Of a stretch of DNA of 32,000 nt, positions 1 to 32,000 are shown piece by piece. The notes under the pieces are model-generated. The model ran no database searches. It had not been told where the DNA came from and saw only the letters and a list, made by a program, of their open reading frames with translations. Both the position numbers and the translations under genes were made by a program. The stretch covers positions 420,001-452,000 of the forward strand of contig CP072208.2 of the NCBI GenBank assembly GCA_015257795.3, in the 5' to 3' direction. Numbering within the stretch: position 1 is the stretch's first letter; the number at the start of each line of letters is the position of its first letter. The stretch comes from Candidatus Nanogingivalaceae bacterium. Its GTDB lineage: Bacteria; Patescibacteriota; Saccharimonadia; Saccharimonadales; Saccharimonadaceae.

Positions 1-606
1 ATCTATCGTATCGCCACGAACTCGAAAAGTTCCGCGAGAAAAATCAACATCGTTTCGTTCATATTGAATATCTTTCAAATGCCTCAAAAATTTATCTCGA
101 TTATAACGCATTCCGGGTTTGATATGCAACGCCATTTGCATATAGCTTGCTGGCGAACCGATACCATAAATACAGCTAACACTCGAAACAATAATCGTAT
201 CGCTCCGAGTTAACAACGCCTCAGTTGCGGCGTGTCGAAGTTTTTCAATCTCTTCATTTATTCGCGAATCTTTTTCGATATATGTATCCGTACTTGCAAT
301 ATAAGCTTCGGGCTGATAATAATCAAAATAGCTCACAAAATAATGAACTTCATTTTCAGGAAAAAACTTTTTAAACTCACCATAAAGCTGAGCCGCAAGA
401 GTTTTATTGTGCGCCAGAATTAAAGTTGGTTTTTGAGTGGCTTGAATAATATTTGCCATTGTAAAAGTTTTACCCGAACCAGTTACACCCAACAAAGTTT
501 GTTCATGCTCACCTTTCTTTAAACCCTCGACTAATTGTGAAATTGCCTGCGGTTGATCACCAGTTGGTTGATATTTTGATTTTAATTTAAACTCACGATA
601 TTTCAT
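1..606 (-). CDS. uvrB: Excinuclease ABC subunit B (UvrB), first 202 codons; gene runs off the window start
   Basis: Own reverse-strand translation from ATG at 604-606 gives [102 protein letters not shown]... It shows the Walker A GSGKT and the UvrB-typical YFVSY(F/Y)DYYQPEAY block. The frame stays open to position 1. It is absent from the ORF track because it is truncated. Confidence 0.9.
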
Positions 607-613
607 TATTTAT

Positions 614-642
614 ATTTTATAATATATTTCATCAAAAAGCAA
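614..642 (-). promoter_or_regulatory. Putative sigma70-type promoter of uvrB, leaderless geometry
   Basis: On the minus strand: TTGCTT (637-642), 17 nt, TAAAAT (614-619), 7 nt, ATG (604-606). No Shine-Dalgarno sequence fits in between. Confidence 0.5.
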
Positions 643-663
643 AACCGCCCAAATTGAGCGGTT
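634..663 (-). terminator. Intrinsic terminator after the LOG-like gene
   Basis: Stem AACCGC (643-648) pairs with GCGGTT (658-663). On the minus strand it is followed by a T-rich run (plus-strand A-run 634-644). Confidence 0.55.
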
Positions 664-667
664 AGCT

Positions 668-1276
668 TTATCCGTTTCCAGCGCGTTTTTCTGAAAGATG
701 GTCATCATCTCGTGGTGCAATGAAGTCTGCATTTTTTTCATCAAGTCGTGCAATCACTTTACGAACAAGCCGTTCAGGGTTATTGTCATAAATTATATCT
801 TTCGTTCCTGGAGCTTCAACATTTTGCAAAAGTGTTGGAACGTAATCGGCAAGCGCCATACTTCCAAGCAAGACACCGCAAACTTTGCGAGATTCTAGAG
901 CGGTTGCGAGTTCGTGAAGCGACCCCATCCGGCCGCCAACTGTAATTACCGCATCGCTTGAAAGCACCAAGTGTGTATCACGCCCAACATAGCTCATTCC
1001 CGTAAAATTAATATAATCAAAAGGCTTAAACGGCAATTTATAAGTATTCACATGTTGTCGAAAACTTGAAGCAGGCGAAAAACCAATACTCAAGCCCGTT
1101 CGACCTTTAACACTAACCGCACCCAAAGCAGCGTAGTGTGGCAAACCAACCGTTGCACCAGTTGTTAAAATCTTTCCTTGCCGAACAATCTCTTGCCCGA
1201 GTCTAAAAGCTAAATCCTTTGAAGCCATAACACTATCTCCGGTGGCAGCCCCAGAAACACAAATTTGATATCTCAT
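668..1276 (-). CDS. LOG / TIGR00725-like Rossmann-fold protein (possible nucleotide 5'-monophosphate nucleosidase)
   Basis: 202-aa ORF with a GGAG Shine-Dalgarno upstream. It has an N-terminal glycine-rich segment (ICVSGAATGD) and a VGGRMGSLHELATALE block resembling the LOG-family PGGxGTxxE motif. Confidence 0.6.
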   Translation of the reverse strand: MRYQICVSGAATGDSVMASKDLAFRLGQEIVRQGKILTTGATVGLPHYAALGAVSVKGRTGLSIGFSPASSFRQHVNTYKLPFKPFDYINFTGMSYVGRDTHLVLSSDAVITVGGRMGSLHELATALESRKVCGVLLGSMALADYVPTLLQNVEAPGTKDIIYDNNPERLVRKVIARLDEKNADFIAPRDDDHLSEKRAGNG

Positions 1277-1286
1277 TTTTCTCCTT

Positions 1287-1745
1287 TTAAAATATTTTTT
1301 CTTCTAGTTGTTTTTTTGAATAATTTGAAAATACTTTTTGGTATTTTTCTAAGATTTCTACTTTTAAAGCTTCTTGAAAATTTTCGAAAACCAACTTATC
1401 GGTATTTTTAAATTCTTTTTTTGAATTCAACTCAACATCTTTTTTATTCACCGAAACAAAACCGTCTTCGGTAAATATCACCGACGTTTCATTCTTCTTC
1501 CAAAAATCATCATTATTAAGCTTATTTTTTAAAGCCGAAATTGCTTCTACATTCAAAACATCACTCTGTAAAAAACCCAATTCCTGTTCTAAATCACGCG
1601 ATTTTTTATACAAGTTTGCCATAATCTGCGCTGAAACGCTTTTTGTTTGTGGCTTTTTAGACTCTAAACTAGTTATTTCATAATTAAACCTTCGCGCATA
1701 AGCACCTTTTAAACCTAAAAGCTCTGAAAGTTTATAAGTTTTCAT
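1287..1745 (-). CDS. Hypothetical protein embedded in the sugar-phosphate operon
   Basis: The ORF-track entry starts at a TTG at 1751. An ATG at 1743-1745 (MKTYKLSELL...) lies 8 nt after GGAGGAG and 2 nt after the PfkB TGA stop, so I prefer that start. I recognise no motif. Confidence 0.6.
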   Translation of the reverse strand: MKTYKLSELLGLKGAYARRFNYEITSLESKKPQTKSVSAQIMANLYKKSRDLEQELGFLQSDVLNVEAISALKNKLNNDDFWKKNETSVIFTEDGFVSVNKKDVELNSKKEFKNTDKLVFENFQEALKVEILEKYQKVFSNYSKKQLEEKIF

Positions 1746-1747
1746 TA

Positions 1748-2710
1748 TCAAATCTCCTCCATCGGCATATCGTGAAGATTTGAATCTTTATATAAAATTC
1801 CTTTTTTAGCACCCAGATATTGAATCACAGAAGTTGAATTTGCGCTTGCGAATAAAATACTCTGCTTAATATCTGCGCCCTGAGCCCATTGACTAACAAA
1901 CCCAGAACCAAAAGCATCACCCGCACCCGTTCTATCAACCGAAGGAATATCTTCATACATTCCGGCATGAATAATTTTGCCCCCGGCTTTGACCCAAACA
2001 CCGTTTGGACCATCTGTTAAAATCATCACCGGCACAAATTCTGCACCACTGCGAACAATTTCTTCAGCAGACACGCCCTCAAAAATTAAACTAGCTTCTT
2101 CTTTATTTAAAATTAAAATTTCAACATCTTTTAATAAAGTTCGAACTTTTCCTGGATTCTCGAGTTCATTTTTACCAGGATTCCAGGCAATTTTTGCGCC
2201 TTTTTTTACCGATTCTTGAATGATTTTCGAAATAACATCGAATCTTCCAGCTAAGTTAGAAAGGTAAACCCAATCAAACTCACCATATTTTAATTCAAAA
2301 TTATCAACATAAATATGTTCTGACGCACCACGATAAGTTAAAATTGTACGCTCACCATTTGGTGCTAAAATAATTGCTGAATAATCTGTATTATATCTAT
2401 CTGAAAACTCCACCCGAGATGTATCGACAGACTCTTCGTCAAGCATTTTTAATACCTGCTCTCCCGATGAATCCGACCCAACTACACCCATAAAACTAGA
2501 TTCTAAACCTTGTCGAGCAAAAGTGGTTGCAGCATTCGTAGCGCCACCACCACTTGAAATTTCAATATTTTCAACTGTTATTTTAGAGCCCAAATCAAGC
2601 TCAACGATATCTTGATTCTTTGCCATTGAGATCAATTTAAAGTCTGGTGAATTGATCAAAAAAACATCTTGAGTGGCAGCCCCAACTGAAAGTATCTTAG
2701 GCGATGACAC
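1748..2710 (-). CDS. PfkB-family carbohydrate/nucleoside kinase (ribokinase-like)
   Basis: 320 aa. It has the GG motif (SSGGGATNAA) and the C-terminal signature DRTGAGDAFGSGF. The start is GTG with AAGGAG upstream. Confidence 0.85.
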   Translation of the reverse strand: MSSPKILSVGAATQDVFLINSPDFKLISMAKNQDIVELDLGSKITVENIEISSGGGATNAATTFARQGLESSFMGVVGSDSSGEQVLKMLDEESVDTSRVEFSDRYNTDYSAIILAPNGERTILTYRGASEHIYVDNFELKYGEFDWVYLSNLAGRFDVISKIIQESVKKGAKIAWNPGKNELENPGKVRTLLKDVEILILNKEEASLIFEGVSAEEIVRSGAEFVPVMILTDGPNGVWVKAGGKIIHAGMYEDIPSVDRTGAGDAFGSGFVSQWAQGADIKQSILFASANSTSVIQYLGAKKGILYKDSNLHDMPMEEI

Positions 2711-2712
2711 TT

Positions 2713-3360
2713 TTAAATTGCTCCTTTACGGTTAATTTCAGTCTCCATCTGATGATAAGCCTGCTCTGGATCTTGTGCTTGCATAATTGCCGCACCAACA
2801 TTCACAACATCAACTCCAGACTGAGTTAAGTTAAAAACGTTCGAAAGGTTAGCGCCACCGTCCCAACCTATTTCAACGTTGCTATTAATGGCCTTTATTA
2901 ATCGAATCTTCTCTAGTTGCATCATATTTGCGATACCACCCATTTCGCCCAAGTTGCCACTAAAAATTAAAATGTGCTCTGCAGCCTTAATTGCTGGCGC
3001 AACTGTCTCTGGGACAGTTGAACGAAGCAAAGCCAAACCTGGCTTAATCATAGTTTCATTTTTAAGTCGCTCAAAAATAGGCACAAGATCTTCTTCAACC
3101 TCAGAATGAAAAACCACCATATTAGGGTTAAGTTGAATAATCGCATCAATGTGCTCACTAGGACGAGCAACCATCATATGAATATCAACCTTCCATTCTT
3201 GAGGCCACCAAATTTGAGTTTCAGGCAAGGTTAAATTAGGCGCAAATTCGCCATCTGTAACATCAATATGAACCCTTTCAGCAAAAGGAAAGATTTTCTC
3301 AACCTGCTCTTTATATTCTTCTGGATTGGTTGCTAAAATTGCTGGTGTAATTATCGACAT
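2713..3360 (-). CDS. rpe: Ribulose-phosphate 3-epimerase family protein (divergent)
   Basis: 215 aa. Blocks HIDVTDGEFAPNLT, DIHMMV and GWDGGA align with the Rpe metal and catalytic blocks HxDxMDGxFVPNxT, DVHLM and DGG. It abuts rpiB with no gap. Confidence 0.7.
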   Translation of the reverse strand: MSIITPAILATNPEEYKEQVEKIFPFAERVHIDVTDGEFAPNLTLPETQIWWPQEWKVDIHMMVARPSEHIDAIIQLNPNMVVFHSEVEEDLVPIFERLKNETMIKPGLALLRSTVPETVAPAIKAAEHILIFSGNLGEMGGIANMMQLEKIRLIKAINSNVEIGWDGGANLSNVFNLTQSGVDVVNVGAAIMQAQDPEQAYHQMETEINRKGAI

Positions 3361-3819
3361 TTAAACCTCATCTATCTGATTATTTCTTCGTATAAAACGC
3401 GGCGCAGCCGCAAAAGGAGTTTTAAGCCAAACGTCTACGGTCTCCTTCCACATGTTTTCCATATCATCTTTATCAAAGACTCGCGCTGGCAAACAGAGAA
3501 CATTACTATCATTGTCGTTACGAGTCCATTTTGCTTCTTCAGGCTCCCATACAACAGACGCACGAATACCTTTATAACGGTTCGCGGCCATTCCCATTCC
3601 TTGTGCACCGCCACAAATTAGAATAGCACGAGAATCGCTCTCATCACTGGCGCGAATTTTCGAAACCGCCATGTGCGCAAATTCTGGAAAATCATCATTT
3701 GGATTATATTCAAAACCACCAATATCTTCTATATTGTAGCCATTATTTTTTAAATATTTAAAAACTTTTTCTTTAAGGTAATAACCTCTGTGGTCTGCAC
3801 CAATAAAAATCTTCATCAA
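3361..3819 (-). CDS. rpiB: Ribose-5-phosphate isomerase B
   Basis: 152 aa. It starts MKIFIGADHRGY and contains ILICGGAQGMGMAANRYKGIRA, both typical of the RpiB/LacAB family. Confidence 0.9.
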   Translation of the reverse strand: MMKIFIGADHRGYYLKEKVFKYLKNNGYNIEDIGGFEYNPNDDFPEFAHMAVSKIRASDESDSRAILICGGAQGMGMAANRYKGIRASVVWEPEEAKWTRNDNDSNVLCLPARVFDKDDMENMWKETVDVWLKTPFAAAPRFIRRNNQIDEV

Positions 3820-3826
3820 AAAACCT

Positions 3827-4834
3827 TTAAATATTCACCGCTACATCAGCAACAATTTCGACCAAGCGGTTAGAGTATCCCCATTCATTATCATACCAAG
3901 CTACGACCTTAATAAGATTTCCGTCAACAACGTTTGTCAATGATAAGTCAACAATAGAGCTATGAGAATTTCCCTTGAAATCCATCGAGACCAAAGGTTC
4001 ATCTGTAACCGCTAGAATTCCCTGATAAAATGGATCTGCGGCAGCACGCTTAAATACTTCGTTAATCTCTTCTTTTGTTGTGTTTCGTTTCAAAACAGCA
4101 GTAATATCGCTCAACGAAACAACCGCCGTTGGAACTCGAACTGATAAACCATCAAACTTTCCTTCAAGAGATGGAATAACTTTTGCGGTCGCAATTGCTG
4201 CGCCGGTTGTAGTTGGAACTATATTTTCAGCTGCAGAGCGAGCCTCACGTAAGTCTTTTGCTGGAGCATCTAGAATCCTCTGGCTTGCGGTATAAGAGTG
4301 GACTGTCGTCATCAAAGACTTTTCGATACCAAATTCGCGTTCAAGAACTGCCATCACTGGAGCAATACAGTTTGTCGTACAACTAGCGTTAGAAATAATA
4401 TCATCTTCGCGCGTAAGTTCGCGCTCATTCACACCAAGCACAATGAATTTAGCTCCATCACCTTTCGCAGGAGCTGAAATCACAACCTTTTTTGCACCAG
4501 CGTTAATATGTGCACGAGCTTTTTCTGGTTGTACAAACAATCCTGTTGCTTCGATTACAACATCAATACCAAATTCTCCCCAAGGCAAAAGCGCTGGATC
4601 ACGCTCTGCTAATACGCGAATTTGTTTTCCGGCAACAAAAATTGAGTTTTCATCATAAGACACATCATAGTGATAAGTTCCATAAGTTGAATCGTGCTTT
4701 AAAAGATGCGCTAAAGTTTTCGTATCTGTCAAGTCATTAATCGCTACAACTTCAATATCATCTCTTTCAAAAGCTAATTTAAAGGCATTGCGACCAATTC
4801 GCCCAAATCCATTAATTGCAATTTTTTTAGACAT
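3827..4834 (-). CDS. gap: Glyceraldehyde-3-phosphate dehydrogenase, type I
   Basis: 335 aa. INGFGRIGR is the NAD-binding motif and SNASCTTNC is the active site, followed by WYDNEWGYS. AGGAG lies upstream. Confidence 0.95.
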   Translation of the reverse strand: MSKKIAINGFGRIGRNAFKLAFERDDIEVVAINDLTDTKTLAHLLKHDSTYGTYHYDVSYDENSIFVAGKQIRVLAERDPALLPWGEFGIDVVIEATGLFVQPEKARAHINAGAKKVVISAPAKGDGAKFIVLGVNERELTREDDIISNASCTTNCIAPVMAVLEREFGIEKSLMTTVHSYTASQRILDAPAKDLREARSAAENIVPTTTGAAIATAKVIPSLEGKFDGLSVRVPTAVVSLSDITAVLKRNTTKEEINEVFKRAAADPFYQGILAVTDEPLVSMDFKGNSHSSIVDLSLTNVVDGNLIKVVAWYDNEWGYSNRLVEIVADVAVNI

Positions 4835-5079
4835 TTCGTCTCCTTTTTATTAAATTTCCTAGTTCTATTTTAACATAAACGCTTTAAAAAATCTAGAAAA
4901 AGCACCAAATTAAAACTCCACTGCTAAAGGTAGGGTTTCGACTTTTCTAGCAATATACTAATTACTTATTTTTTCACCAGCTCTTATCACTTTAATCACC
5001 TTAGTATTCTTGATTAGCCCTAAATTACCCCTTTGATGAAGTTACAAACAAAGATTGATTCATGCGTATGAAGTTTTTA

Positions 5080-5298
5080 CTATAAAAGATTGATAGCATC
5101 ATCTTTAATTTCGTCAAAAATCTGGTCGTAATATTCGTAAAATTCTTTAAGATTCCCCTCATTACCTTCAACCGCACGCAATGCAAGGGTTAAAAGGGTA
5201 TCTAATAGATCCCTATTCTCAGAATTTTCATATTCCGTAGAGCCCAGAAGTGTTACAACCGCTTTCGGGTTCCTTGAGATTTTGTCCTTAATTTTCAT
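5080..5298 (-). CDS. Hypothetical small acidic protein (72 aa)
   Basis: The ORF overlaps the upstream 182-aa ORF by 11 nt, which suggests coupling. I recognise no motif. Confidence 0.45.
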   Translation of the reverse strand: MKIKDKISRNPKAVVTLLGSTEYENSENRDLLDTLLTLALRAVEGNEGNLKEFYEYYDQIFDEIKDDAINLL

Positions 5299-5836
5299 AT
5301 TTCACTCTTTCAATCTTGCCCTGCGACAAATCACGCCATTTTCCATTTTCAAAAACCCTAAAATGCGATTTTTTGAAAGGAACCTCTTGCGATTTTAGCC
5401 AATCTAAAACTTTTCGAAAATTCTCCACACGAAAAACAAAACCGTCGTAGCCAAAATCAAAATTCTTAAAACTCATTTTTTGCGGGTTTTCTTCGTTTAA
5501 CATTTTAACAAAATCTTGAATCGCAAATTCAGGATAATTCAAAGCTTCGCCCAACAAAATTGATTTTTCTCTTTCATTACCGTACCAGGAAAGACTTTCA
5601 GCCTCAAGATATTTTTCCAAATTCTCAATTTTGCGAAAAAGAAAAATTTGCGTTTTCGAATGTGTGCGGCTTTTATTCCAGAACGAGTGAAAGTGAATAT
5701 TCTTTCGAAAAACAGCCCGAATAATTGAAAATTTTATTCTTCCCCAAAAGCTATTCTCAAAAACCAAAATCATACTTTTACGCCGCTTCAGCGCGAATGC
5801 CAAAATCATTTTTCGATGAATTTTCGAAAGTTTCAT
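5288..5836 (-). CDS. Hypothetical basic protein (182 aa)
   Basis: The ORF lies 64 nt downstream of rel on the same strand. Its N-terminal 80 aa are very basic and low-complexity, so the true start is uncertain. It contains four TTCGAA copies. Confidence 0.45.
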   Translation of the reverse strand: MKLSKIHRKMILAFALKRRKSMILVFENSFWGRIKFSIIRAVFRKNIHFHSFWNKSRTHSKTQIFLFRKIENLEKYLEAESLSWYGNEREKSILLGEALNYPEFAIQDFVKMLNEENPQKMSFKNFDFGYDGFVFRVENFRKVLDWLKSQEVPFKKSHFRVFENGKWRDLSQGKIERVKYEN

Positions 5837-5900: not shown

Positions 5901-7457
5901 TTATTTCTCGCCCGATTTTCTGGCTCGAATCGCTTCAGCATTTTTAATCGGCTCCAAATCGCCTCTTTGGCGAAGCTGTGAACGAAGCTTGATTCGTGCG
6001 TGTGAAGTTTTTACTAAATCAAGCCAATCGATCTTTGGCTCAGAACTCTTGCGCGTTAAAACTTCAACCACATCACCCTTTTCAAGCGGTTTATCGAACG
6101 CATGGATTTTCTCATTCACGCGAAAAGCATAAGCATATTTACCAATATCGCTGTGGACCATATAAGCAAAATCAAGTGGCAAAGCACCTTCGGGTAGATT
6201 GTAAATATCGCCTTTTGGAGAATACACAAAAATCCGATCACCGAAAATATCAATTTGAAGCTGTTCGGGGTTAATCTCTTCACCATCTCTTAACCGTTGC
6301 GCAACATCCTGGAGCTGCACAATCCATTGCAATTCATTCGATAGACCCCCATTACCTTTAACCTCACTTCGTCGCTTCGAAGTTGCTCCCGAAATATAGT
6401 CTTTGCTCGATTTTTGCTCGTGATAATGAAAACTCGCCGCCAAACCACGCTCGGCAAACTCATGCATATCACGCGTTCGAATTTGAAACTCTGCAATTAA
6501 TTTCGAAGGTGTGATCACAGTCGTATGCAGCGATTGATAGCCGTTTGGTTTTGGCATTGAAATATAATCTTTGATTCGTTCAATCATTGGCTTATAAATT
6601 GAATGCAATACCCCCAAAACACGGTAGCAGTCATCTTTCGAATTCACAATAATTCTCAAAGCCATTAAATCGTATACCCGATCAATATCGCCCCTGGTTT
6701 TTTTAAGTTTTTTATAAAGAGAATAGACACTCTTAACTCGCCCTGAAATCTCAAACTCTACACCCGCTTTTTTTAGCTCTTTTTCAACCTCTTCACGTAC
6801 TTTTCCTAATTTTCGAGTACTTTTACCGAGTCGTTTTCGAATTTCATTTTCAAGTCGCTTATATTCTTTCGGATTCAAGTAAAGAAAAGCTTGCTCTTCC
6901 ATTTGCATTCGTACGCGTCCCATTCCTAAACGGTCAGCAATTCGTGCAAAAACATCCAAAGTTTCTTGGGCGATTTTCTTTTGTTTTTCTGGAGACATAT
7001 ATTGTAAAGTCTGAACATTATGCAATCTATCCGCCAACTTAATAATCACCACGCGAACATCTTGCCCAACCGCAATCAATAATTTCGAAAGATTATCTTT
7101 TGTTTGAGGAAGATACGTTTCGAGATTTCCCATTCCTGCACGTGCCTTCCCAACCTTAGTTACACCATCAACCAAAAAAGCGATATCTTTGCCGAAATGT
7201 TCTTCAATTTCATCTAATGGTGTTTCTGTGTCTTCTACAACGTCGTGTAAAACCCCTGCAATAATCGTATCAATATCCATACCCCATTCAACTAAAAAGC
7301 TAGCCACTTTTAATGGGTGCGTTATATATTCTTCGCCAGATTTTCGCATTTGACCTTTATGTTTTTCGGTTGCAAAATCAATAGCTTCTTCTAATTTTTT
7401 TATATCTTCCGCAGAATAAAACGGTTTCGCAATTCTTAAGAGTTCAGCCTTTTCCAT
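5901..7457 (-). CDS. rel: Bifunctional (p)ppGpp synthetase/hydrolase, short Rel/SpoT homologue (HD + synthetase + TGS only)
   Basis: 518 aa. The HD motif is HPLKVA...HDVVEDT. Synthetase blocks are GRVKSVYSLYKKL, DLMALRIIV and YQSLHTTV. A TGS-like segment is IFVYSPKGDIYNLPEGALPLDFAY. The protein ends about 45 aa after TGS. Confidence 0.9.
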   Translation of the reverse strand: MEKAELLRIAKPFYSAEDIKKLEEAIDFATEKHKGQMRKSGEEYITHPLKVASFLVEWGMDIDTIIAGVLHDVVEDTETPLDEIEEHFGKDIAFLVDGVTKVGKARAGMGNLETYLPQTKDNLSKLLIAVGQDVRVVIIKLADRLHNVQTLQYMSPEKQKKIAQETLDVFARIADRLGMGRVRMQMEEQAFLYLNPKEYKRLENEIRKRLGKSTRKLGKVREEVEKELKKAGVEFEISGRVKSVYSLYKKLKKTRGDIDRVYDLMALRIIVNSKDDCYRVLGVLHSIYKPMIERIKDYISMPKPNGYQSLHTTVITPSKLIAEFQIRTRDMHEFAERGLAASFHYHEQKSSKDYISGATSKRRSEVKGNGGLSNELQWIVQLQDVAQRLRDGEEINPEQLQIDIFGDRIFVYSPKGDIYNLPEGALPLDFAYMVHSDIGKYAYAFRVNEKIHAFDKPLEKGDVVEVLTRKSSEPKIDWLDLVKTSHARIKLRSQLRQRGDLEPIKNAEAIRARKSGEK

Positions 7458-7463
7458 ATATTA

Positions 7464-8977: not shown

Positions 8978-9008
8978 TTAAAAATCACAAATGAAGGAGG
9001 TCTCAAAA

Positions 9009-11744: not shown

Positions 11745-11780
11745 TAGTCTATTTTACCATATGTTAATTATTTTTCGAAA

Positions 11781-24139: not shown

Positions 24140-24165
24140 ATCCAGTAAAATCATATAGTCAACTT

Positions 24166-24253
24166 TGGTACCGCGAGCCGGACTTGAACCGGCACGAGCG
24201 TAATGCTCACCAGATTTTGAGTCTAGCGTGTCTACCAATTCCACCATCGCGGC
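24166..24253 (-). tRNA. tRNA-Leu (anticodon CAA), 88 nt, CCA encoded
   Basis: The reverse complement is GCCGCGATGGTGGAATTGGTAGACACGCTAGACTCAAAATCTGGTGAGCATTACGCTCGTGCCGGTTCAAGTCCGGCTCGCGGTACCA. It folds as a cloverleaf with a 7-bp acceptor stem, anticodon loop CTCAAAA, a long variable arm (GAGC/GCTC) and the canonical T-loop TTCAAGT. Confidence 0.92.
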
Positions 24254-24342
24254 TGATATGTTCACGACTATCGATTCTGTTTTTGGTTATTTACATAACT
24301 CAATATCTATTGTATACTAAGAATAAGGAAAAAGCAATAGAA

Positions 24343-26264: not shown

Positions 26265-27209
26265 ATGAAAAAACATCTTATTCTCGTTATCAACCCTCGT
26301 TCGAGCGGTTTTGAATTGATTCGAGAAAAAATCCTCCCTTTTTTAGAAGATGCTCATTTCGAAAAAAATCAGCTTACAACTTTCGAAATCCAGCCGACTT
26401 CACCAATGGAAAATGTGCAGGAAATGGCCAAAGGGTTAAAAGATGGAGATATTATCCTTGTCGCTGGCGGTGATGGAACCGCCCACATTGCTACTAACGC
26501 CGCAGCACTCTCGGGAAAGAAAAACTTAAAAATAAAATTCACAGGCTTCGGTAATTTTAATGATTATGCTCACAGTTTTTCAAAAAATAGCGGAAAAGCC
26601 GCGATTGAGGCTTTCGAAAAACTTGAAGTCAAAGCTAAAATCCGCCCCATTGAATTAAAAATTAACGGATCTTTTTTTAGATATGCACCACTTTATGCAA
26701 CAATTGGCTTAACTGCAGAGATGGCCGAGATTTTTGAAGGTCGAAGAATTCGGAAAGTTTTGAAAAAAATCCACAATCGAAACATGCGCTTGATTCTCTC
26801 GCTTAGCGCTGCAACTCGCTTTTATTTCAAGCATTGTCGAAATCACGTTTTGAATATATCAGAAATTAAAGCCGACACAAATAAATTTGACAAAATTCCA
26901 CAAAACCCAACAGATATTGTTTTTATGAATGGTCCACGAATGGCTCGAATTATGCGTAGCTCCATAAATAAAACAGATGCTGACAATTTTGGGTTTGGGG
27001 TTTTAAATTCAGCAAGATTAATACAAAATTCTCCTTTTTTGCTTCGAGGAATTTTTGGAAAAATACCCTTAACCCGTAGAAAATCTATTAAAATTAATTT
27101 TAAAAATCCACAAGACATAACAATTCAAATTGAGGGTGAAGTTTGTAAAATCAAAAAAGTTAAAACAGTTGAAGCTAGCTTAAGTGAAAAAATAATAGAG
27201 GTTTTATAA
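26265..27209 (+). CDS. Diacylglycerol/lipid kinase catalytic-domain protein (DAGK/YegS-like)
   Basis: 314 aa. LILVINPRS followed by ILVAGGDGT is the DAGK_cat signature. Confidence 0.75.
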   Translation: MKKHLILVINPRSSGFELIREKILPFLEDAHFEKNQLTTFEIQPTSPMENVQEMAKGLKDGDIILVAGGDGTAHIATNAAALSGKKNLKIKFTGFGNFNDYAHSFSKNSGKAAIEAFEKLEVKAKIRPIELKINGSFFRYAPLYATIGLTAEMAEIFEGRRIRKVLKKIHNRNMRLILSLSAATRFYFKHCRNHVLNISEIKADTNKFDKIPQNPTDIVFMNGPRMARIMRSSINKTDADNFGFGVLNSARLIQNSPFLLRGIFGKIPLTRRKSIKINFKNPQDITIQIEGEVCKIKKVKTVEASLSEKIIEVL

Positions 27210-27210: not shown

Positions 27211-28356
27211 ATGGATGAAATCGAATTAACAAAAAAATTAATCGAAATAGAAAGCGTTTCAGGCAATGAAACTAAAATTCTAGAGTTCATTGCCGATTTC
27301 TTGCAAAAAAAATCAGCAAAAGTGTGGCAAAATGAAGATTTTGTGGCAGGCCTTTTCAAGATTCGAAATTCCAAAGATCAAAATCTAAAAAATAATCGAG
27401 CAATTATTCTAACCGGTCATATCGATACTGTTTCTGCTGGAGACTTAAATGCTTGGGATAAATCACCTTGGCAAGCAATCGAAACGAGCGAAAAAATCAT
27501 CGGACTCGGCGCAAGCGATATGAAAGGCGGCTTAGCTGCTCAATTTATCGCGGCATTAGATTTTATTAAAGAAGGAAATTTTAAAAGCAATTTTGATCTC
27601 TGGCTTGTTGCAGTTTCAAATGAAGAAATTGATGGTCGTGGAAGTCGTAATTTTGTAAAATGGCTAAATCAACAATCTGGTTTTAGCTATAAAGAAACTT
27701 TTGGAATTATCGCTGAGCCAACAAACAATAAAAATATCGAAATCGGCCACCGTGGAAACAGATTTCTAACTTTAAAATTTACCGGAGAAAGTGGACATGC
27801 TTCACAACAAGAAAATTATCAAAAATCCGCACTTTCGAAAGCTTCAAGTTTCTTATTAAATATCGATGCTATTTTTAACAAATGGGTTGATAAATATTCA
27901 AATATCTATCTAAGGAAACCTAGTTTAGTCCCAACTTCTTTGAGCGCCGGAGATAAGCAAAGCCCCAACAAGACAGCAACCTCCGCCGAAATAGTCCTAG
28001 ATATACGAACGACACCAGAGCTTGACACGGATTTCGAAAACGCCTTTAATCTTCTAGCTAAAAAATATGGATTTTCCTGGAAATATCATAGCGATCCCGT
28101 ACCATCAACTCTTGTTTCAGAAAACTCAGCAGTTATTAAGAATATACTAAAATCTGCAGACCTAACAGAGTCATCGATCATGATTAGCCCTGGCGCAACA
28201 GACCAAGGAGAGTTTGTTAATGGTCTTAAAAATACTCAGGTAGTTGTTTTCGGGCCCGGCGAATGGGATGAAGCACATCATCAAAATGAATTTATCTATA
28301 AAGAAAAACTTTCAAAATACAAAATGGAAATAGTAGATTTTCTGAAAGAATTTTAA
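27211..28356 (+). CDS. M20-family metallopeptidase (ArgE/DapE-like deacylase)
   Basis: 381 aa with the blocks LTGHIDTV, GASDMKGG, VSNEEIDG and GHRG. The start lies 1 nt after the upstream stop. Confidence 0.8.
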   Translation: MDEIELTKKLIEIESVSGNETKILEFIADFLQKKSAKVWQNEDFVAGLFKIRNSKDQNLKNNRAIILTGHIDTVSAGDLNAWDKSPWQAIETSEKIIGLGASDMKGGLAAQFIAALDFIKEGNFKSNFDLWLVAVSNEEIDGRGSRNFVKWLNQQSGFSYKETFGIIAEPTNNKNIEIGHRGNRFLTLKFTGESGHASQQENYQKSALSKASSFLLNIDAIFNKWVDKYSNIYLRKPSLVPTSLSAGDKQSPNKTATSAEIVLDIRTTPELDTDFENAFNLLAKKYGFSWKYHSDPVPSTLVSENSAVIKNILKSADLTESSIMISPGATDQGEFVNGLKNTQVVVFGPGEWDEAHHQNEFIYKEKLSKYKMEIVDFLKEF

Positions 28357-28365
28357 TTAAAATCC

Positions 28366-28394
28366 TTGACTTAGTTAATATTTTTTGCTAAAAT
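28366..28394 (+). promoter_or_regulatory. Putative tRNA-Gly promoter
   Basis: TTGACT (28366-28371), 17 nt ending in TGc, TAAAAT (28389-28394). The tRNA 5' end lies 10 nt downstream. Confidence 0.6.
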
Positions 28395-28404
28395 ATTAAC
28401 ATAC

Positions 28405-28480
28405 GCGGGTTTAGCTCAGTTGTTAGAGCGCTTCCTTGCCATGGAAGAGGCCAGGAGTTAGAGTCTCCTAACCCGCACCA
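28405..28480 (+). tRNA. tRNA-Gly (anticodon GCC), 76 nt, CCA encoded, non-canonical elbow pair
   Basis: The sequence is GCGGGTTTAGCTCAGTTGTTAGAGCGCTTCCTTGCCATGGAAGAGGCCAGGAGTTAGAGTCTCCTAACCCGCACCA. It has a 7-bp acceptor stem and anticodon loop TTGCCAT. The D-loop is AGTTGTTA (usual AGTTGGTA) and the T-loop is TTAGAGT (usual TTCGAGT). Confidence 0.9.
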
Positions 28481-28498
28481 TATAATAGATTTTATTTC

Positions 28499-28525
28499 AT
28501 AAACCTTAAATAGGTTTATTTTTTA
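28499..28525 (+). terminator. Intrinsic terminator after tRNA-Gly
   Basis: ATAAACC (28499-28505) pairs with GGTTTAT (28513-28519), followed by TTTTTT. Confidence 0.65.
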
Positions 28526-28541
28526 TTATTCCTTAATAATC

Positions 28542-28565
28542 TAAAAGAGTAGCCTAGGCTACTCT
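28542..28565 (-). terminator. Perfect 20-bp palindrome acting as likely terminator of the 484-aa gene
   Basis: AGAGTAGCCTAGGCTACTCT (28546-28565) is self-complementary. It includes the TAG stop codon and is followed on the minus strand by TTTT. Confidence 0.55.
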
Positions 28566-30013
28566 TCTGTTGTCATATTCATTCGGTTTATCGAAAATGT
28601 ACCGTTATCATTTTTTATAAAAGTATAAATAAACTTATTATTTGCAGAAATTGTAAATGGAAAATCCGCCAACCCCTTCGATAAAACTTGCCGATTCATG
28701 CTATCAAAATCTGAAATTACCAGTTTACCTTCAGAATACCCCCCTAAAACAAAGTCATCAAGCCACTTAATTTCATCTCCGTCAACCGAAGTGTATGTGT
28801 AATTGTTACGAGTTTCAAGATCGTAAGAGTAAACACTATTACCTTTCTTTGCGATTAAGATCCTTGATTCACCATTAAGCTTTAAGTAGTCCGGCATAAA
28901 ACCAACATTCAACACTTTGATTAGCTGTAAGCCGTCCGACCAGCTCGCAGACTTATAAATATTAATTTTCGGCCCTTCAGCCACATAGAGATAACTTTCT
29001 CTATAATATCGTCCTATCGCAATCTTTGGTTGGTTTTTTAAACCGCTCGTCGTCTCATTATTTTTGTCGCCGCGCCTTACACCAACTGAAAATTCACCAT
29101 TTTTAACATTTTTTTGAATATATGCAATATTTTCCTTATCATAAATTTCAAAATCAACGATATTATTTAAAAATGCAGCAGAAATAGTATTATTCGAAAT
29201 ATTTATTTCCCGTAAGTCCGTTCCAGAAAGCCCAACAAACTTGTTAGCGTCATCACTTGAGGCCGCCAGCTTAGAAAAATCAAGATGAAACTTTTGAGTT
29301 AGATTTATAGATTCTGTAGGGTTTTCGAAATTTAAAATCAACCAATCAAGCTTTCCGCTATTATTAAAACTCACTATCGCCTTTTTGTTATCGTTAGAAA
29401 TCTTTGAAACCTTTAAATTATCTGCGATTTTATAAAAATTATCTTTTCCAGATGTTTCTGAAGTTTGATTATTTCGTTCGAAAATGTTTGAGTTAAAATT
29501 TAGTTTCGATATTTTTGGCTCTCGATCCGAAATATCGATTAGCCAAAATACAGCCTCGCTGTTTGAATCTTCTGATATGGCGAAAATCTTTTTCTTATCA
29601 GGAGCTACAAAAGCATTTTTTAAATTCGGAATATTTAAAAAACTTTTCTCTGTTATTTTTTTAGGAACTAAGCGCGCATAGTTTAACCACAAAATTTCAC
29701 CAACCCTAACTTCTGTTTGACGCCACCAAGTTTGATAGCCTTCTTTCCAGATTGAAAATTCGTGCCTTCCGGGTGTGGCTAAATTTTTCGTTGGTGTACC
29801 TTCTGGTAAGGGTTTTTTATCTATTTCTGAAATTGAATTTGGGATTGAAGAGTTAAACTGAACCAAACCAGTCCTCTGAACTTCAAATTTTTCATCGAGG
29901 CGCCAACCTTGAGTTAGAAAAATCAAAACAGAGACAACACCCAAAACCGTAGCCGTCATTATAAAATTTTTAAAGAAAACTATTGTATTTTCTTTTCTTC
30001 GAGATATTTTCAT
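28559..30013 (-). CDS. Membrane-anchored surface protein with PEGA-like domain and large beta-rich C-terminal region
   Basis: 484 aa with an N-terminal TM helix (MTATVLGVVSVLIFL). The segment PGRHEFSIWKEGYQTWWRQTEVRVGE resembles a PEGA domain. The remainder is repetitive beta-strand-like sequence. Confidence 0.6.
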   Translation of the reverse strand: MKISRRKENTIVFFKNFIMTATVLGVVSVLIFLTQGWRLDEKFEVQRTGLVQFNSSIPNSISEIDKKPLPEGTPTKNLATPGRHEFSIWKEGYQTWWRQTEVRVGEILWLNYARLVPKKITEKSFLNIPNLKNAFVAPDKKKIFAISEDSNSEAVFWLIDISDREPKISKLNFNSNIFERNNQTSETSGKDNFYKIADNLKVSKISNDNKKAIVSFNNSGKLDWLILNFENPTESINLTQKFHLDFSKLAASSDDANKFVGLSGTDLREINISNNTISAAFLNNIVDFEIYDKENIAYIQKNVKNGEFSVGVRRGDKNNETTSGLKNQPKIAIGRYYRESYLYVAEGPKINIYKSASWSDGLQLIKVLNVGFMPDYLKLNGESRILIAKKGNSVYSYDLETRNNYTYTSVDGDEIKWLDDFVLGGYSEGKLVISDFDSMNRQVLSKGLADFPFTISANNKFIYTFIKNDNGTFSINRMNMTTEE

Positions 30014-30023: not shown

Positions 30024-30053
30024 ATTATAGCATATTTTAACCGTTGTTGGCAA
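30024..30053 (-). promoter_or_regulatory. Putative promoter of the 484-aa gene
   Basis: On the minus strand: TTGCCA (30048-30053), 18 nt ending in TGc, TATAAT (30024-30029), 10 nt, ATG (30011-30013). Confidence 0.5.
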
Positions 30054-30076
30054 ATTATTATTTTTCATAAAAGCAC

Positions 30077-30105
30077 TTGCTAAAGATTTTTTATGGTGCT
30101 AAAAT
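30077..30105 (+). promoter_or_regulatory. Putative eno promoter, leaderless geometry
   Basis: TTGCTA (30077-30082), 17 nt ending in TGc, TAAAAT (30100-30105), 6 nt, ATG (30112). Confidence 0.55.
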
Positions 30106-30111
30106 GGAAGT

Positions 30112-31389
30112 ATGGAATATATAATTAAAGATATCAAAGGACGACAAATTTTAGACTCCCGCGGCAATCCAACAGTTGAAGCGGATGTAATTTTAGAAAG
30201 CGGTGCTTTTGGCCGTGCAGCAGTTCCAAGCGGCGCATCAACAGGATCGGGTGAAGCTCTTGAACTTCGCGATGGCGATAAAGCTTTTGGTGGAAAATCA
30301 GTTTATAAGGCTGTTTCTGCTGTTAATAATCAGATTCGAGAAGCCTTGATCGGTAAAAATGCTGAGGATCAAGAAACTATCGATAAAATTATGATCGATC
30401 TTGACGGAACTGAAAATAAAGCTGGCCTAGGTGCAAATGCAATCCTTTCAGTATCTCTTGCAACAGCAAAAGCTGTAGCAAACGCGAAAGGTGTTGAACT
30501 TTGGCAATATATCGCCGAAAAAACTAACTCAACTCCAAATCTTCCACTTCCAATGATGAATGTCATGAATGGTGGTGCACACGCTGGATGGGCAACTGAT
30601 ATTCAGGAATATATGATTATGCCTGTTGGCGCTAAAGATATCTTCGAAGCCATTCAAATGGGTGCTGAGACTTTTCATGCTTTAGCAAAAGTCCTTAAAT
30701 CGAAAAACTACCCAACAACTGTTGGTGATGAAGGTGGTTATGCGCCAAGAGTTCAAAACGGAAATGAAGAACCTCTACAATTAATTTCTCAAGCTATCAA
30801 AGACGCCGGTTATGAACCAGGAAAAGATATCGCTTTCGCGTCAGACCCAGCATCAAGCGAATTCTACAAAGATGGAAAATATGATTTGAAAGCCAATGAT
30901 GCAGTTCTTTCTAGTGAAGAAATGATCGAATTCTATGAAGATTTAACTTCAAAATATCCTTTTGTTTCAATTGAAGATGGACTTGCTGAAAACGATTGGG
31001 ATGGATGGAAAGTTCTTACAGAACGTCTTGGCAAAAAAATCCAACTTGTTGGTGACGATTTAATGGTTACAAATTCAAAACTTCTCCAAAAATCAATCGA
31101 TTTAAATGTTGCGAATGCTATTCTTATTAAACCAAATCAAATTGGTTCTCTAACAGAAACTATTAATGCCGTAAAATTGGCTCAAAATAATGGCTACAAC
31201 ACTGTAATGAGTCACCGCTCAGGCGAAACAGAAGATGTAACAATCGCTCATTTGGCTGTCGGTTTAGGATGTGGACAAATTAAAACTGGATCTCTTTCAC
31301 GAACTGATCGTGTTGCAAAATACAATGAATTAATGCGAATCGCTGAAGCACATCCAGAACTAAAACTTGCGCAACCTTTTGAAAAATAG
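30112..31389 (+). CDS. eno: Enolase (phosphopyruvate hydratase)
   Basis: 425 aa with the blocks [23 protein letters not shown] and SHRSGETED. Confidence 0.97.
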
Positions 31390-31404
31390 CATACTATAAT
31401 GTAA

Positions 31405-31437
31405 ATAAAAAAATCTCCAAACTCTGGAGATTTTTTT
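31405..31437. terminator. Bidirectional intrinsic terminator (eno / dnaE convergent)
   Basis: ATCTCCA (31413-31419) pairs with TGGAGAT (31425-31431). It is flanked by an A-run upstream and a T7 run downstream. Confidence 0.75.
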
Positions 31438-31446
31438 ATTTACGAA

Positions 31447-32000
31447 TTAGTCTTTAAGCACCACACACTCTTCACCAAGTAGCAAAACCAACTCTTTAAG
31501 TAGTTTCGAACTCGCATCAACTTTAAAGCGCATTCGAATTGCAGATTTTTCAACTTCACCAAGAACCAAGATTACCTCACTCATTCCAGGGAATTTTTCA
31601 CAGATTTTCCTTATCGAAAGCAAAGATTTATGATCGCTTGGATTCTTTATGTGCAAAAATACCCTTTGTATTTTTTCTGCCTGATAATTTTCCGCCGATC
31701 GAGACTTGTCTAGCGTCTTATTTGTATCTTGTGTTTTTAAAGTTGTTCCACTATTTTTTTGCGTGAATGTATGTTTTTTCCCATTCGAAACTCTTTGAGA
31801 AACAGTCTTAGTTTGTGGTACTTTTCTAGTCTTCAAGCCTTCTGCACGATGGCCAGTTGATTCATAATTCTCCAATTCTTCATCTGTTATAACCGAAACT
31901 GTTTCAGCAATAATTTGCGCATCTGGTTTTAAATTACCATCACGATCTCTTGCTGACACTTTGCCTTCAATTTTTAATACGGCATCAATATTTAACCTAT
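31447..32000 (-). CDS. dnaE: Probable C-terminal end of DNA polymerase III alpha subunit (partial; continues beyond window end)
   Basis: The frame is open upstream of the track's GTG at 31959. My translation of 31960-31998 gives RLNIDAVLKIEGK, continuing into VSARDRDGNLK. That is an OB-fold-end pattern, and the tail (PGMSEVILVLGEVEKSAIRMRFKVDASSKLLKELVLLLGEECVVLKD) resembles DnaE C-termini. I recognise it from memory only. Confidence 0.5.
   Translation of the reverse strand, partial: RLNIDAVLKIEGKVSARDRDGNLKPDAQIIAETVSVITDEELENYESTGHRAEGLKTRKVPQTKTVSQRVSNGKKHTFTQKNSGTTLKTQDTNKTLDKSRSAENYQAEKIQRVFLHIKNPSDHKSLLSIRKICEKFPGMSEVILVLGEVEKSAIRMRFKVDASSKLLKELVLLLGEECVVLKD

Follow-up and report, generated by a model that had tools for sequence, protein, structure and literature searches.

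The uptake signal sequences (USS) of the Pasteurellaceae and the DNA uptake sequences (DUS) of the Neisseriaceae are asymmetric words of 9-12 bp for which an uptake bias has been shown experimentally; they occur at about one per kb, in genes in all frames and with effects on protein sequence, form clade dialects, are scarce in foreign DNA and are fairly evenly spaced. The highly iterated palindromes (HIPs) are octameric palindromes with nested methyltransferase sites, and the alternate HIPs co-occur with a cognate methyltransferase (Elhai 2015, PMC4390886). HIP1 sites are conserved beyond neutrality, for which selection was argued over biased repair, and a periodicity of HIP1 at 10-90 kb has been reported (Xu et al. 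2018, PMC5861425), while Elhai's published model attributes HIP1 accumulation to a repair ratchet (PMC4390886). Methylated HIP1 was found to lift natural transformation up to >100-fold (bioRxiv 10.1101/2024.09.10.611283), and HIP1 abundance co-varies with the DNA-uptake machinery (bioRxiv 10.64898/2026.06.24.733823). HIP-type hyper-abundant palindromes have previously been described in cyanobacteria only and, after 30 years, their function has just now been tied to methylation and transformation. Here we describe the palindrome TTCGAA, with its full form TTTCGAAA, in a window of 32,000 nucleotides (positions 420,001-452,000 of CP072208.2) from a Candidatus Nanogingivalaceae bacterium of the oral Saccharibacteria (TM7) clade G6. 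We conclude with high confidence that TTCGAA is a hyper-abundant dispersed HIP-type palindrome, built and kept by a directional force on duplex DNA in one genus-level G6 lineage, and we are equally confident that this force overrides synonymous-codon preference, reaches the amino-acid sequence and fills non-coding DNA. The motif is HIP-type in behaviour, is not HIP1, and is the first such palindrome that we could find outside cyanobacteria.

The likeness to HIP1 extends to the architecture of the word, as both are 8-bp palindromes with nested cores, TCGA within TTCGAA within TTTCGAAA in the one case and GATC within CGATCG within GCGATCGC in the other. With HIP1 and the alternate HIPs of cyanobacteria (Robinson 1995; Elhai 2015, PMC4390886; Xu et al. 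2018, PMC5861425) the motif shares a tens-of-fold over-representation at about one site per gene or more, occurrence in all reading frames and in intergenic DNA, soft outer bases, retention between species above neutral, and a lineage-specific pattern of presence, absence and replacement. Of the properties by which a HIP is recognised, we found a short palindrome over-represented many-fold (30 copies versus 1.1 expected from composition), its dispersal through all frames and non-coding DNA of two unlinked regions without being part of a longer repeat, and a conservation of sites across species beyond neutral. The motif differs from HIP1 in that its excess, 27-fold over composition and 7-fold over dinucleotides, is among the lower values seen for HIP1, in being AT-rich, in its host, an epibiont of the Patescibacteria/Candidate Phyla Radiation (CPR) with a reduced genome of 0.69 Mb, and in that the TCGA core alone is not enriched. 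As regards one-off deviations, which in HIPs are biased to the first and last bases, the hexamer is enriched with any flank, yet the evolutionary variants at conserved sites centre on the CpG and not on the outer bases. HIP1 proper was excluded, the motif being TTTCGAAA and not GCGATCGC and the host being Saccharibacteria G6 and not cyanobacteria.

Abundance and placement of the palindrome in the window

The window has a GC content of 36.2% and a coding fraction of 91%. Exact counting established 67 copies of TTCGAA and 30 of TTTCGAAA, in agreement with an earlier, sequence-only reading of the window, of which all 30 octamer coordinates match and which had also placed a tandem at 16106-16117, where TTCGAATTCGAA is found. 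By z-score TTCGAA ranks at the top of all hexamers and TTTCGAAA at the top of all octamers in the window. From composition one would expect 10.9 hexamers and 1.1 octamers, and the resulting excess of 6.2-fold and 27-fold bears out the estimates made by eye (about 11 and about 1; roughly 6-fold and 25- to 30-fold), while a first-order Markov model predicts 24.7 and 4.4 (octamer 7-fold over) and a maximal-order model 60 and 25; the expectations climb with the order of the model because the nested sub-words are themselves enriched. By extrapolation from the window density, a 692-kb genome would hold about 1,450 TTCGAA and about 650 TTTCGAAA. The control palindromes TTGCAA, AAGCTT and AACGTT behave as ordinary words under the null models, as the eye count had suggested, although their true numbers (15, 22 and 5) are higher than those first given (about 10, 12 and 2).

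The sites were assigned to codon phases, phase 0 being TTC-GAA (Phe-Glu), phase 1 xTT-CGA-Axx (Arg CGA) and phase 2 xxT-TCG-AAx (Ser TCG). All three phases are used, as had been claimed (each of the 17 phase assignments then listed is right), with 18, 21 and 26 sites in phases 0, 1 and 2, respectively, and two sites in intergenic DNA. The sites, which as palindromes carry no strand, are given below with the strand of the surrounding open reading frame (ORF); clade and sister group are the lineages described in the following section.

1382-1389: TTTCGAAA octamer, ORF 1287-1751 (-), phase 0 (Phe-Glu)
2140-2145: TTCGAA, ORF 1748-2710 (-), phase 1 (Arg CGA)
2225-2232: TTTCGAAA, ORF 1748-2710 (-), phase 2 (Ser TCG)
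2840-2845: TTCGAA, rpe ORF 2713-3360 (-), phase 2
3658-3665: TTTCGAAA, rpiB ORF 3361-3819 (-), phase 2
5412-5419: TTTCGAAA, ORF 5288-5836 (-), phase 1
5655-5660: TTCGAA, ORF 5288-5836 (-), phase 2
5703-5710: TTTCGAAA, ORF 5288-5836 (-), phase 1
5822-5829: TTTCGAAA, ORF 5288-5836 (-), phase 2
6376-6381: TTCGAA, relA/spoT ORF 5901-7457 (-), phase 2
6476-6481: TTCGAA, relA/spoT ORF 5901-7457 (-), phase 1
6502-6507: TTCGAA, relA/spoT ORF 5901-7457 (-), phase 2
6637-6642: TTCGAA, relA/spoT ORF 5901-7457 (-), phase 2
6836-6841: TTCGAA, relA/spoT ORF 5901-7457 (-), phase 1
7083-7090: TTTCGAAA, relA/spoT ORF 5901-7457 (-), phase 2
7728-7733: TTCGAA, ORF 7590-8285 (+), phase 0
9215-9222: TTTCGAAA, ORF 8991-9398 (+), phase 0
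9237-9242: TTCGAA, ORF 8991-9398 (+), phase 0
9595-9602: TTTCGAAA, PIN/TRAM ORF 9421-10377 (-), phase 2
9638-9643: TTCGAA, PIN/TRAM ORF 9421-10377 (-), phase 2
10291-10298: TTTCGAAA, PIN/TRAM ORF 9421-10377 (-), phase 2
10453-10458: TTCGAA, radA ORF 10392-11744 (-), phase 2
10535-10540: TTCGAA, radA, phase 1; common to 100% of aligned clade species
10940-10947: TTTCGAAA, radA, phase 0; synonymous TTTGAA in the sister group
11773-11780: TTTCGAAA, intergenic
11866-11871: TTCGAA, ORF 11781-12773 (-), phase 2
12210-12217: TTTCGAAA, ORF 11781-12773 (-), phase 2
12562-12567: TTCGAA, ORF 11781-12773 (-), phase 2
12818-12825: TTTCGAAA, nuclease ORF 12797-13474 (+), phase 1
12922-12927: TTCGAA, nuclease ORF 12797-13474 (+), phase 2
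13612-13619: TTTCGAAA, rnhB-UPF0102 ORF 13471-14508 (-), phase 2
13652-13659: TTTCGAAA, rnhB-UPF0102 ORF 13471-14508 (-), phase 1
14002-14009: TTTCGAAA, rnhB-UPF0102 ORF 13471-14508 (-), phase 2; 100% of the clade, Leu-Ala-Ile in the sister group
14267-14272: TTCGAA, rnhB-UPF0102 ORF 13471-14508 (-), phase 2
14748-14753: TTCGAA, rplS ORF 14515-14973 (-), phase 1
14790-14795: TTCGAA, rplS ORF 14515-14973 (-), phase 1
15317-15322: TTCGAA, pilB ORF 15015-16643 (-), phase 1; common to 100% of the clade
16106-16117: TTCGAATTCGAA tandem, pilB (Ile-Arg-Ile-Arg-Met), both copies phase 1
16963-16968: TTCGAA, ORF 16744-17097 (+), phase 0
17477-17484: TTTCGAAA, SpoU-type ORF 17151-17708 (+), phase 0
19506-19511: TTCGAA, murF ORF 18244-19551 (-), phase 1; Val-Arg-Arg in the clade, Val-Lys-Lys in the sister group
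19809-19814: TTCGAA, ORF 19747-20559 (-), phase 1
20625-20632: TTTCGAAA, intergenic
21402-21407: TTCGAA, ORF 20674-21489 (+), phase 2
21733-21738: TTCGAA, gltX ORF 21517-22974 (-), phase 0
22365-22372: TTTCGAAA, gltX, phase 0
22604-22611: TTTCGAAA, gltX, phase 1
22911-22916: TTCGAA, gltX, phase 1
23068-23073: TTCGAA, ORF 23042-24055 (-), phase 1
23708-23715: TTTCGAAA, ORF 23042-24055 (-), phase 2
24446-24451: TTCGAA, sortase-domain ORF 24136-25785 (+), phase 1
24765-24772: TTTCGAAA, sortase-domain ORF 24136-25785 (+), phase 0
25752-25759: TTTCGAAA, sortase-domain ORF 24136-25785 (+), phase 0
26357-26364: TTTCGAAA, DAGK ORF 26265-27209 (+), phase 0
26381-26388: TTTCGAAA, DAGK ORF 26265-27209 (+), phase 0
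26612-26619: TTTCGAAA, DAGK ORF 26265-27209 (+), phase 0
27362-27367: TTCGAA, M20 peptidase ORF 27211-28356 (+), phase 1
27833-27840: TTTCGAAA, M20 peptidase ORF 27211-28356 (+), phase 2
28032-28039: TTTCGAAA, M20 peptidase ORF 27211-28356 (+), phase 0
29193-29198: TTCGAA, ORF 28559-30013 (-), phase 2
29323-29330: TTTCGAAA, ORF 28559-30013 (-), phase 0
29477-29482: TTCGAA, ORF 28559-30013 (-), phase 0
30643-30648: TTCGAA, eno ORF 30112-31389 (+), phase 0
31505-31510: TTCGAA, 3' part of dnaE, ORF 31447-31959 (-), phase 2
31533-31538: TTCGAA, 3' part of dnaE, ORF 31447-31959 (-), phase 1
31784-31789: TTCGAA, 3' part of dnaE, ORF 31447-31959 (-), phase 2

Such an excess might be artefactual, reflecting the usage of amino acids, codon pairs or dinucleotides, mutation that depends on context but not on site recognition, or errors of sequencing or assembly, and it is in keeping with this explanation that CpG is not depleted (rho 1.2), that AA/TT is high (1.32), that the maximal-order Markov expectation comes near the observed number and that the strictest shuffle lifts the expectation to 34.6. 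However, synonymous codon permutation within genes, by which protein, dipeptides and codon usage are kept, yielded 27.5±4.3 TTCGAA as compared to the observed 67 (maximum 45 in 1000 shuffles) and 7.5±2.1 TTTCGAAA as compared to 30 (maximum 16 in 1000 shuffles), corresponding to z≈9-10 (up to 10.6). When the shuffle kept amino acids and codon usage together with the number of each dinucleotide, codon junctions included, 34.6±4.3 TTCGAA were expected in coding sequence against 65 observed (z 7.1), and under the same constraints 9.2±2.8 TTTCGAAA against 28 (z 6.7). Both of these coding-aware nulls are conservative, because the codon and dinucleotide usage which they inherit was itself shaped by the motif. 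The shuffles thus failed to reproduce the count, as the sequence-only reading had anticipated when it set aside a codon or dipeptide artefact, and three shuffles together with the dinucleotide-preserving one rule out a codon, dipeptide or dinucleotide origin, a z of about 7 being left with all dinucleotides kept. The motif is moreover enriched in non-coding DNA (observed/expected ratio, O/E, 3.6), sister lineages with similar GC and proteins are without it, and independent Illumina metagenome-assembled genomes from several separate studies match the enrichment of the nanopore-hybrid genome, by which a sequencing artefact was also ruled out. We therefore regard an artefactual origin as scarcely credible. 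An explanation at the level of translation or of the peptide is contradicted by the frame-independence and the non-coding enrichment, and an RNA-level motif or a tRNA T-loop mimic (GTTCGAATC) is unlikely in view of the symmetric T/A flanks, the presence of G at -1 in just 11% of sites, and the use of all phases and both gene orientations.

Alignment of all sites revealed extra information only at -1/+1, where T (A on the 3' side) is present at 0.61 of sites versus a baseline of 0.38-0.41 for other TTC words, and no conservation of the flanks beyond ±1, which rules out a longer mobile repeat (a repetitive extragenic palindrome, REP, or a miniature inverted-repeat transposable element, MITE) as the carrier. 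TTCGAA is enriched with any flank and its inner one-off variants are not enriched, while in the clade ATCGAA, GTCGAA and the remaining NTCGAN hexamers do not exceed expectation, so that the TaqI-type TCGA core, whose presence in the site the sequence-only reading had noted, was dropped as the enriched unit. The recognised unit is the TTCGAA hexamer with soft T/A flanks, of which TTTCGAAA is the full form. As full octamers make up 64% of non-coding but 37% of coding sites, TTTCGAAA looks to be the form preferred once coding constraint is lifted.

Across the enriched lineage one TTCGAA is met every 300-500 bases, and the spacing of sites is slightly more even than random (coefficient of variation, CV, 0.76-0.90). 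The patchy distribution with a bias towards accessory genes that had been perceived by eye was not statistically supported (per-gene chi-square p=0.73; variance/mean in 1-kb bins 0.9), and no correlation was seen between the density of the motif and the conservation of the protein (rho -0.23, p=0.42), the ribosomal protein gene rplS carrying 7.6 sites per kb.

Distribution among lineages and evolution of the sites

Relatives were sampled by a PilB-anchored scan with one genome per species, giving 34 loci with PilB identities of 100% to 57%; about 100 kb of non-redundant clade DNA was covered, contiguous sequence extended over about 52 kb, and enrichment was judged on loci rather than on complete genomes. 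The complete genome of the G6 strain JB003 (CP076102.2; 691,584 bp) encodes the enolase of the window, and the species occurs in hundreds of public metagenome assemblies from the mouth. The groups compared are as follows.

Enriched clade (about 20 species representatives, PilB ≥95%; full-length loci): 58-74 TTCGAA per 21.6 kb (2.7-3.4 per kb), expected 7.4 from composition and ~16 from dinucleotides; octamers 23-29
Sister group (L025, L026, L034; PilB 82%): 17-18 TTCGAA per 21.6 kb, expected 7.3 from composition and ~13 from dinucleotides; octamers 5-7
Nanogingivalis gingivitcus (L024; PilB 86%): 2 TTCGAA per 21.6 kb, depleted, expected 7.4 and 4.9; CpG rho 0.66; octamers 0
Six more distant Saccharibacteria (PilB 57-74%): TTCGAA at or below expectation; octamers 0-2

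Shorter loci of the enriched clade have a similar or somewhat lower density (2.2-4.0 per kb); the window itself has 2.1 per kb, and the window and full-length loci together span 2.1-3.6 per kb. A second, unlinked region (G6PD, RlmH, ABC transporter, PNPase, ValS) holds 75 TTCGAA and 34 octamers in 20.9 kb as compared to 16.6 and 3.1 expected, whereas in a Saccharibacterium further removed 10 TTCGAA were counted at this locus versus 12.8 expected; a metagenome hit together with a search for homologues led to the region, and its assignment to the clade, which is not proven, is based on GC content, sample provenance and Saccharibacteria homology. With two unlinked regions sampled, the enrichment is therefore genome-wide in character. 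In one locus (L288) a mobile gene for an MmeI-type restriction-modification (R-M) enzyme has no site in 2.4 kb, while the remainder of the locus has 4.1 per kb: the process works slowly on resident DNA and has not yet reached recently acquired genes.

The gap at 28356-28559, between the M20 peptidase gene and the gene for a 484-aa PEGA-domain protein, holds tRNA-Gly(GCC) (28405-28480) and is a strain-variable insertion point, where an MmeI-type R-M enzyme with a helicase and a T5orf172 protein is found in one strain and a serine recombinase in another. The islands in this gap have an intermediate TTCGAA density, with 8 sites in 6.2 kb (L006, 2288-8448) and 6 in 2.9 kb (L003, 5591-8448).

TTCGAA is a BstBI/AsuII-type restriction site and TCGA a TaqI-type site. 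The motif is thus identical in sequence to the target of a BstBI/AsuII-type R-M system, and its depletion in the near relative N. gingivitcus (2 versus 5-7 expected) is as would be seen for a restriction target; in contrast, the focal clade is enriched 4-9-fold, and no such system was found in the sampled DNA. A restriction target under avoidance was accordingly ruled out for the focal clade, the word being under-represented only in N. gingivitcus. The 21.6-kb locus of Candidatus Nanogingivalis gingivitcus has 23 TCGA versus 36 expected and 2 TTCGAA versus 5-7 expected, and among its Arg codons CGA accounts for just 8% and AGA for 41%; this signature fits CpG-targeted methylation/deamination or restriction avoidance. 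A more distant lineage of Saccharibacteria that is free of the motif (L285-L287, positions 1-4950) has the HsdM and HsdS genes of a type I R-M system, interspersed with one for a KAP-family NTPase, near the conserved ABC transporter locus, with two shorter ORFs in place of the HsdS gene in L285.

Codon alignments of 14-20 orthologous genes of the window and its relatives, in which the four-fold degenerate sites are just 46-50% identical between the window and most clade members and thus near saturation, revealed that a TTCGAA of the window recurs at its position in 59% of the remaining clade species (median 70%). In the sister group these amino acids are written in other codons, namely TTTGAA for Phe-Glu, CGT/CGG/AGA for Arg and TCT/AGT for Ser. 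Within the clade the motif occupies 53% of Phe-Glu, 53% of [F/L/I/V]-Arg-[A-initial codon] and 38% of x-Ser-[Asn/Lys] peptides, as compared to 13%, 16% and 11% expected from codon usage; the corresponding occupancies are 24%, 21% and 9% in the sister group and 0%, 0% and 4% in N. gingivitcus, and more distant relatives are at or below expectation. The motif-compatible peptides which in aligned columns are unique to one species number 55 in a species of the enriched clade (L021) versus 35 in one of the sister group (L026), and the motif is present in 34 of the former but in only 4 of the latter, which ties amino-acid differences to the motif, as in murF where Val-Arg-Arg stands against Val-Lys-Lys. 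Between species, with amino acids conserved, retention is 0.63-0.68 for motif codons versus 0.31-0.33 for those codons when they lie outside a motif (p=1e-4 to 4e-3; modest samples of 19-39 sites per pair), for example 0.65 versus 0.32 (p=2e-3) in one pair and 0.68 versus 0.33 (p=1e-4) in another. The proposal of a positive DNA-level process akin to HIP1 or an uptake signal, which the sequence-only reading had made, is thus upheld by both coding-aware nulls, by the use of all three frames, by the non-coding enrichment, by lineage specificity and by retention above neutral.

Very-short-patch repair by Vsr with Dcm (CCWGG, E. coli) is a methyltransferase-linked process which enriches its own recognition site and leaves as its signature a depleted T:G-derived neighbour. 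This is unlike what was seen here, where no selective loss of the neighbour TTTGAA/TTCAAA is apparent (O/E 0.90 in the clade versus 1.03 in the sister group) and many sites needed transversions or multi-step codon changes (AGA/CGT to CGA, AGT/TCT to TCG), such that a Vsr-like T:G→C:G repair bias is not supported. A broader form of the repair hypothesis is the neutral ratchet of Elhai, in which a TTCGAA methyltransferase and a mismatch nuclease dependent on methylation would between them resolve mismatches in hemi-cognate sites in favour of the motif, the latter being a by-product without function. This explanation accommodates a core palindrome of restriction-site type, a motif that is clade-specific and missing from a newly acquired gene, a mild depletion of CG-containing one-off neighbours in the clade relative to the sister group (ATCGAA 0.57 versus 0.94; TGCGAA 0.63 versus 0.89) and a retention close to equilibrium occupancy, for which continual regeneration would suffice, and it has the merit of a model already published for HIP1 (PMC4390886). 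Set against this are the lack of selective depletion of the commonest neighbour, which excludes simple Vsr-type T:G repair, the multi-step codon changes or amino-acid replacements demanded by many sites, the absence of an identified methyltransferase or nuclease from the sampled DNA, and the preference of Xu et al. for selection over biased repair in the case of HIP1 (PMC5861425). On balance we consider the ratchet unlikely.

Candidate mechanisms for the maintenance of the palindrome

The strict palindromic core with its symmetric soft flanks, and the gain of the motif in one lineage while its nearest relatives are without it or avoid it, lead us to infer a single site-specific protein of two-fold symmetry acquired by that lineage and missing from its relatives. 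The explanation which we prefer, though tentatively and by analogy with the systems described above, is that the motif may act as a self-DNA tag in natural transformation, read via a cognate methyltransferase or binding protein and biasing uptake or recombination. The recogniser would most likely be a TTCGAA-specific DNA methyltransferase, either an orphan or part of an R-M system; motif-bearing fragments, possibly methylated, would be preferentially bound, taken up or recombined, and motif-containing alleles could then spread through the recombining population by molecular drive and be kept thereafter. Such a role would parallel that currently proposed for HIP1 and that established for USS and DUS. 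Natural competence in Saccharibacteria operates through ComEC, and the CPR at large has conserved genes for com and the type IV pilus (PMC10633639). That TTTCGAAA is a true transformation signal of a CPR bacterium, a palindromic self tag which might depend on methylation and would be recognised by the type IV pilus/Com or recombination apparatus, is a more doubtful proposition. The repair ratchet, a methylation-independent uptake signal and a chromosome mark would all fit the lineage-specific, frame-independent enrichment equally well; the candidates named in the sequence-only reading were methylation or repair, an uptake signal and a nucleoid-protein site.

Several observations weigh against the self-tag explanation. 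Regular-expression screens of all ORFs in the clade loci (about 100 kb) for a cognate methyltransferase gave only strain-variable MmeI-type enzymes with an N6-methyltransferase motif, and no candidate for a reader or receptor protein was found in the sampled clade DNA; a preprint on CPR methyltransferases likewise gave no lead to a cognate enzyme, and the paper on the JB003 genome and its supplements make no mention of restriction, methylation, competence or palindromes. Competence has been demonstrated for G1-type Saccharibacteria only, which are transformed with synthetic DNA and without a known signal (PMC10633639), while G6 is uncultured. A perfect palindrome of 6-8 bp without further flank differs from USS and DUS and would afford poorer discrimination. 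The 10 kb to the left of the window, examined in JB003-like strains (L041-L044, positions 10610-20609), carry just 7-12 sites versus 5.5-6.6 expected, or 0.7-1.2 per kb as compared to 2.1 per kb in the window (Poisson p 4e-4 to 0.025). The genes of this flank encode a SHOCT protein, UvrB, BacA, SecY, a sortase, a HAD protein, IF-1, L36, S13, S11, S4 and RpoA; conserved genes as such do not account for its weakness, given the density of 7.6 sites per kb in rplS, and the right flank of the window holds 15 sites versus 4.8 expected. Retention is just about twice neutral and near equilibrium occupancy, such that conservation driven by selection and continual regeneration are inseparable. Lastly, the single-base variants at conserved sites are C>T or G>A in the central CpG in 26 of 55 cases, where HIP1 has an outer-base bias; these CpG-centred variants fit decay by AT-biased or CpG mutation against a restoring force.

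If the tag were instead a pure uptake sequence of the USS/DUS type, it would be read directly by a pilus or surface receptor without methylation. The match to USS and DUS is considerable, comprising a density of about 1-3 per kb, dialect-like clade limits, use of all frames, an effect on amino-acid sequence, absence from foreign DNA (0 sites in the 2.4-kb MmeI-type gene) and fairly even spacing; relatives of the host lineage show natural competence and possess type IV pili and ComEC, a machinery conserved in Saccharibacteria (PMC10633639), and PilB is encoded in the window. However, a palindrome of 6-8 bp is unlike every characterised USS or DUS, G1 Saccharibacteria take up synthetic DNA without a known signal (PMC10633639), the sampled DNA offers no receptor candidate, and in our literature search we found no paper that ties uptake sequences to Saccharibacteria, nor any report of TTCGAA or TTTCGAAA as an iterated bacterial motif. 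A methylation-independent uptake sequence thus appears quite unlikely. The sequence-only reading had pointed to pilB and a secreted nuclease in connection with uptake; both are present (T2SSE and GmrSD_C/HNH-type, respectively), but nothing ties either of them to the motif, and the former is listed here as context for the uptake hypothesis.

15015-16643 (-): PilB-type type IV pilus ATPase (T2SSE; PF00437, E=8e-90)

A third possibility is that TTCGAA is the site of a nucleoid or chromosome-organising protein, or a timing mark for replication or mismatch repair (Dam/SeqA/MutH-like), selected for dense and fairly even coverage of the chromosome. The palindromic T/A-flanked site, its spacing (CV 0.76-0.9) and its retention above neutral expectation agree with this, and the heterogeneity at the 10-kb scale recalls the 10-90 kb periodicity of HIP1 (PMC5861425). 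A basic function of this kind is nevertheless unlikely to arise in one genus-level clade and yet be absent or reversed in its closest relatives. We also know of no nucleoid protein or Dam-type system that reshapes codon usage or fills some 50% of compatible positions, and a chromosome mark is in our judgement very unlikely.

G6 would provide an independent and sequence-unrelated case, and thereby a natural replicate for HIP function, in a phylum with natural competence and in a genome of 0.69 Mb. The existence of close relatives with strong, weak, absent and reversed motif states makes a correlation with gene presence and absence (methyltransferase, receptor) directly feasible. Should the motif prove to be a transformation signal, no earlier signal for uptake or recombination would be known from the Patescibacteria, HIPs would have a second independent origin, and palindromes of this type would emerge as a general means of biasing gene exchange towards kin. 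Donor DNA to which the motif has been added could help to open the uncultured clade G6 to genetics, provided that the motif favours uptake or recombination, and motif density also serves as a sharp criterion when G6 contigs are binned or foreign DNA is to be recognised in them.

Octamer arrays elsewhere and other features of the window

Closely spaced octamers were also sought, as pairs in viral contigs and as triplets in metagenome contigs, where the matches listed comprise chance pairs and local arrays (for example AGTACTTTCGAAAGTACT clusters and coding tandem repeats), the sole dispersed carrier among them being a G6-like contig (L187). Four metagenome contigs with GC 0.46-0.50 (L206 1829-2392, L208 2833-2958, L284 2496-3020 and L191 328-835) have dense local clusters of AGTAC-TTTCGAAA-GTACT and half-sites GTACGAAAGTAC, which look like site arrays of a dimeric regulator or iterons, on unrelated environmental contigs. 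A tandem 15-bp unit GAAATTAGCACTTTC, with TTTCGAAA in every unit, is found at 6966-7461 of the viral contig IMGVR_UViG_3300023210_004010 (L124), and a tandem array of TTTCGAAA with 27/54-bp spacing at 30-1675 of a metagenome contig (L223); both probably represent repeats of a coding or structural kind that have no relation to the dispersed motif of Saccharibacteria.

Within the window, the sortase-domain ORF (24136-25785, 549 aa) starts across tRNA-Leu(CAA), encoded on the opposite strand (24166-24253, -), and reads '...WYREPDLNRHE...' (24136-24343); as this gene is called as 480 aa in some assemblies and 549 aa in others, its first 69 or so codons are probably untranslated. In the 345-aa ORF at 13471-14508 (-), RNase HII (Pfam E=5e-34) and a YraN-like UPF0102 domain of nuclease fold (E=5e-18) are fused. 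The minus-strand ORF 17090-17506 (138 aa) lies nearly entirely inside the plus-strand gene of the SpoU-type methyltransferase (17151-17708) and is probably a spurious antisense ORF. GC skew is -0.14 to -0.22 where genes are mostly on the minus strand (1-24000) and moves towards 0 at the switch to the plus strand (24-28 kb), and thus tracks gene orientation, as it relaxes where the genes turn to the plus strand.

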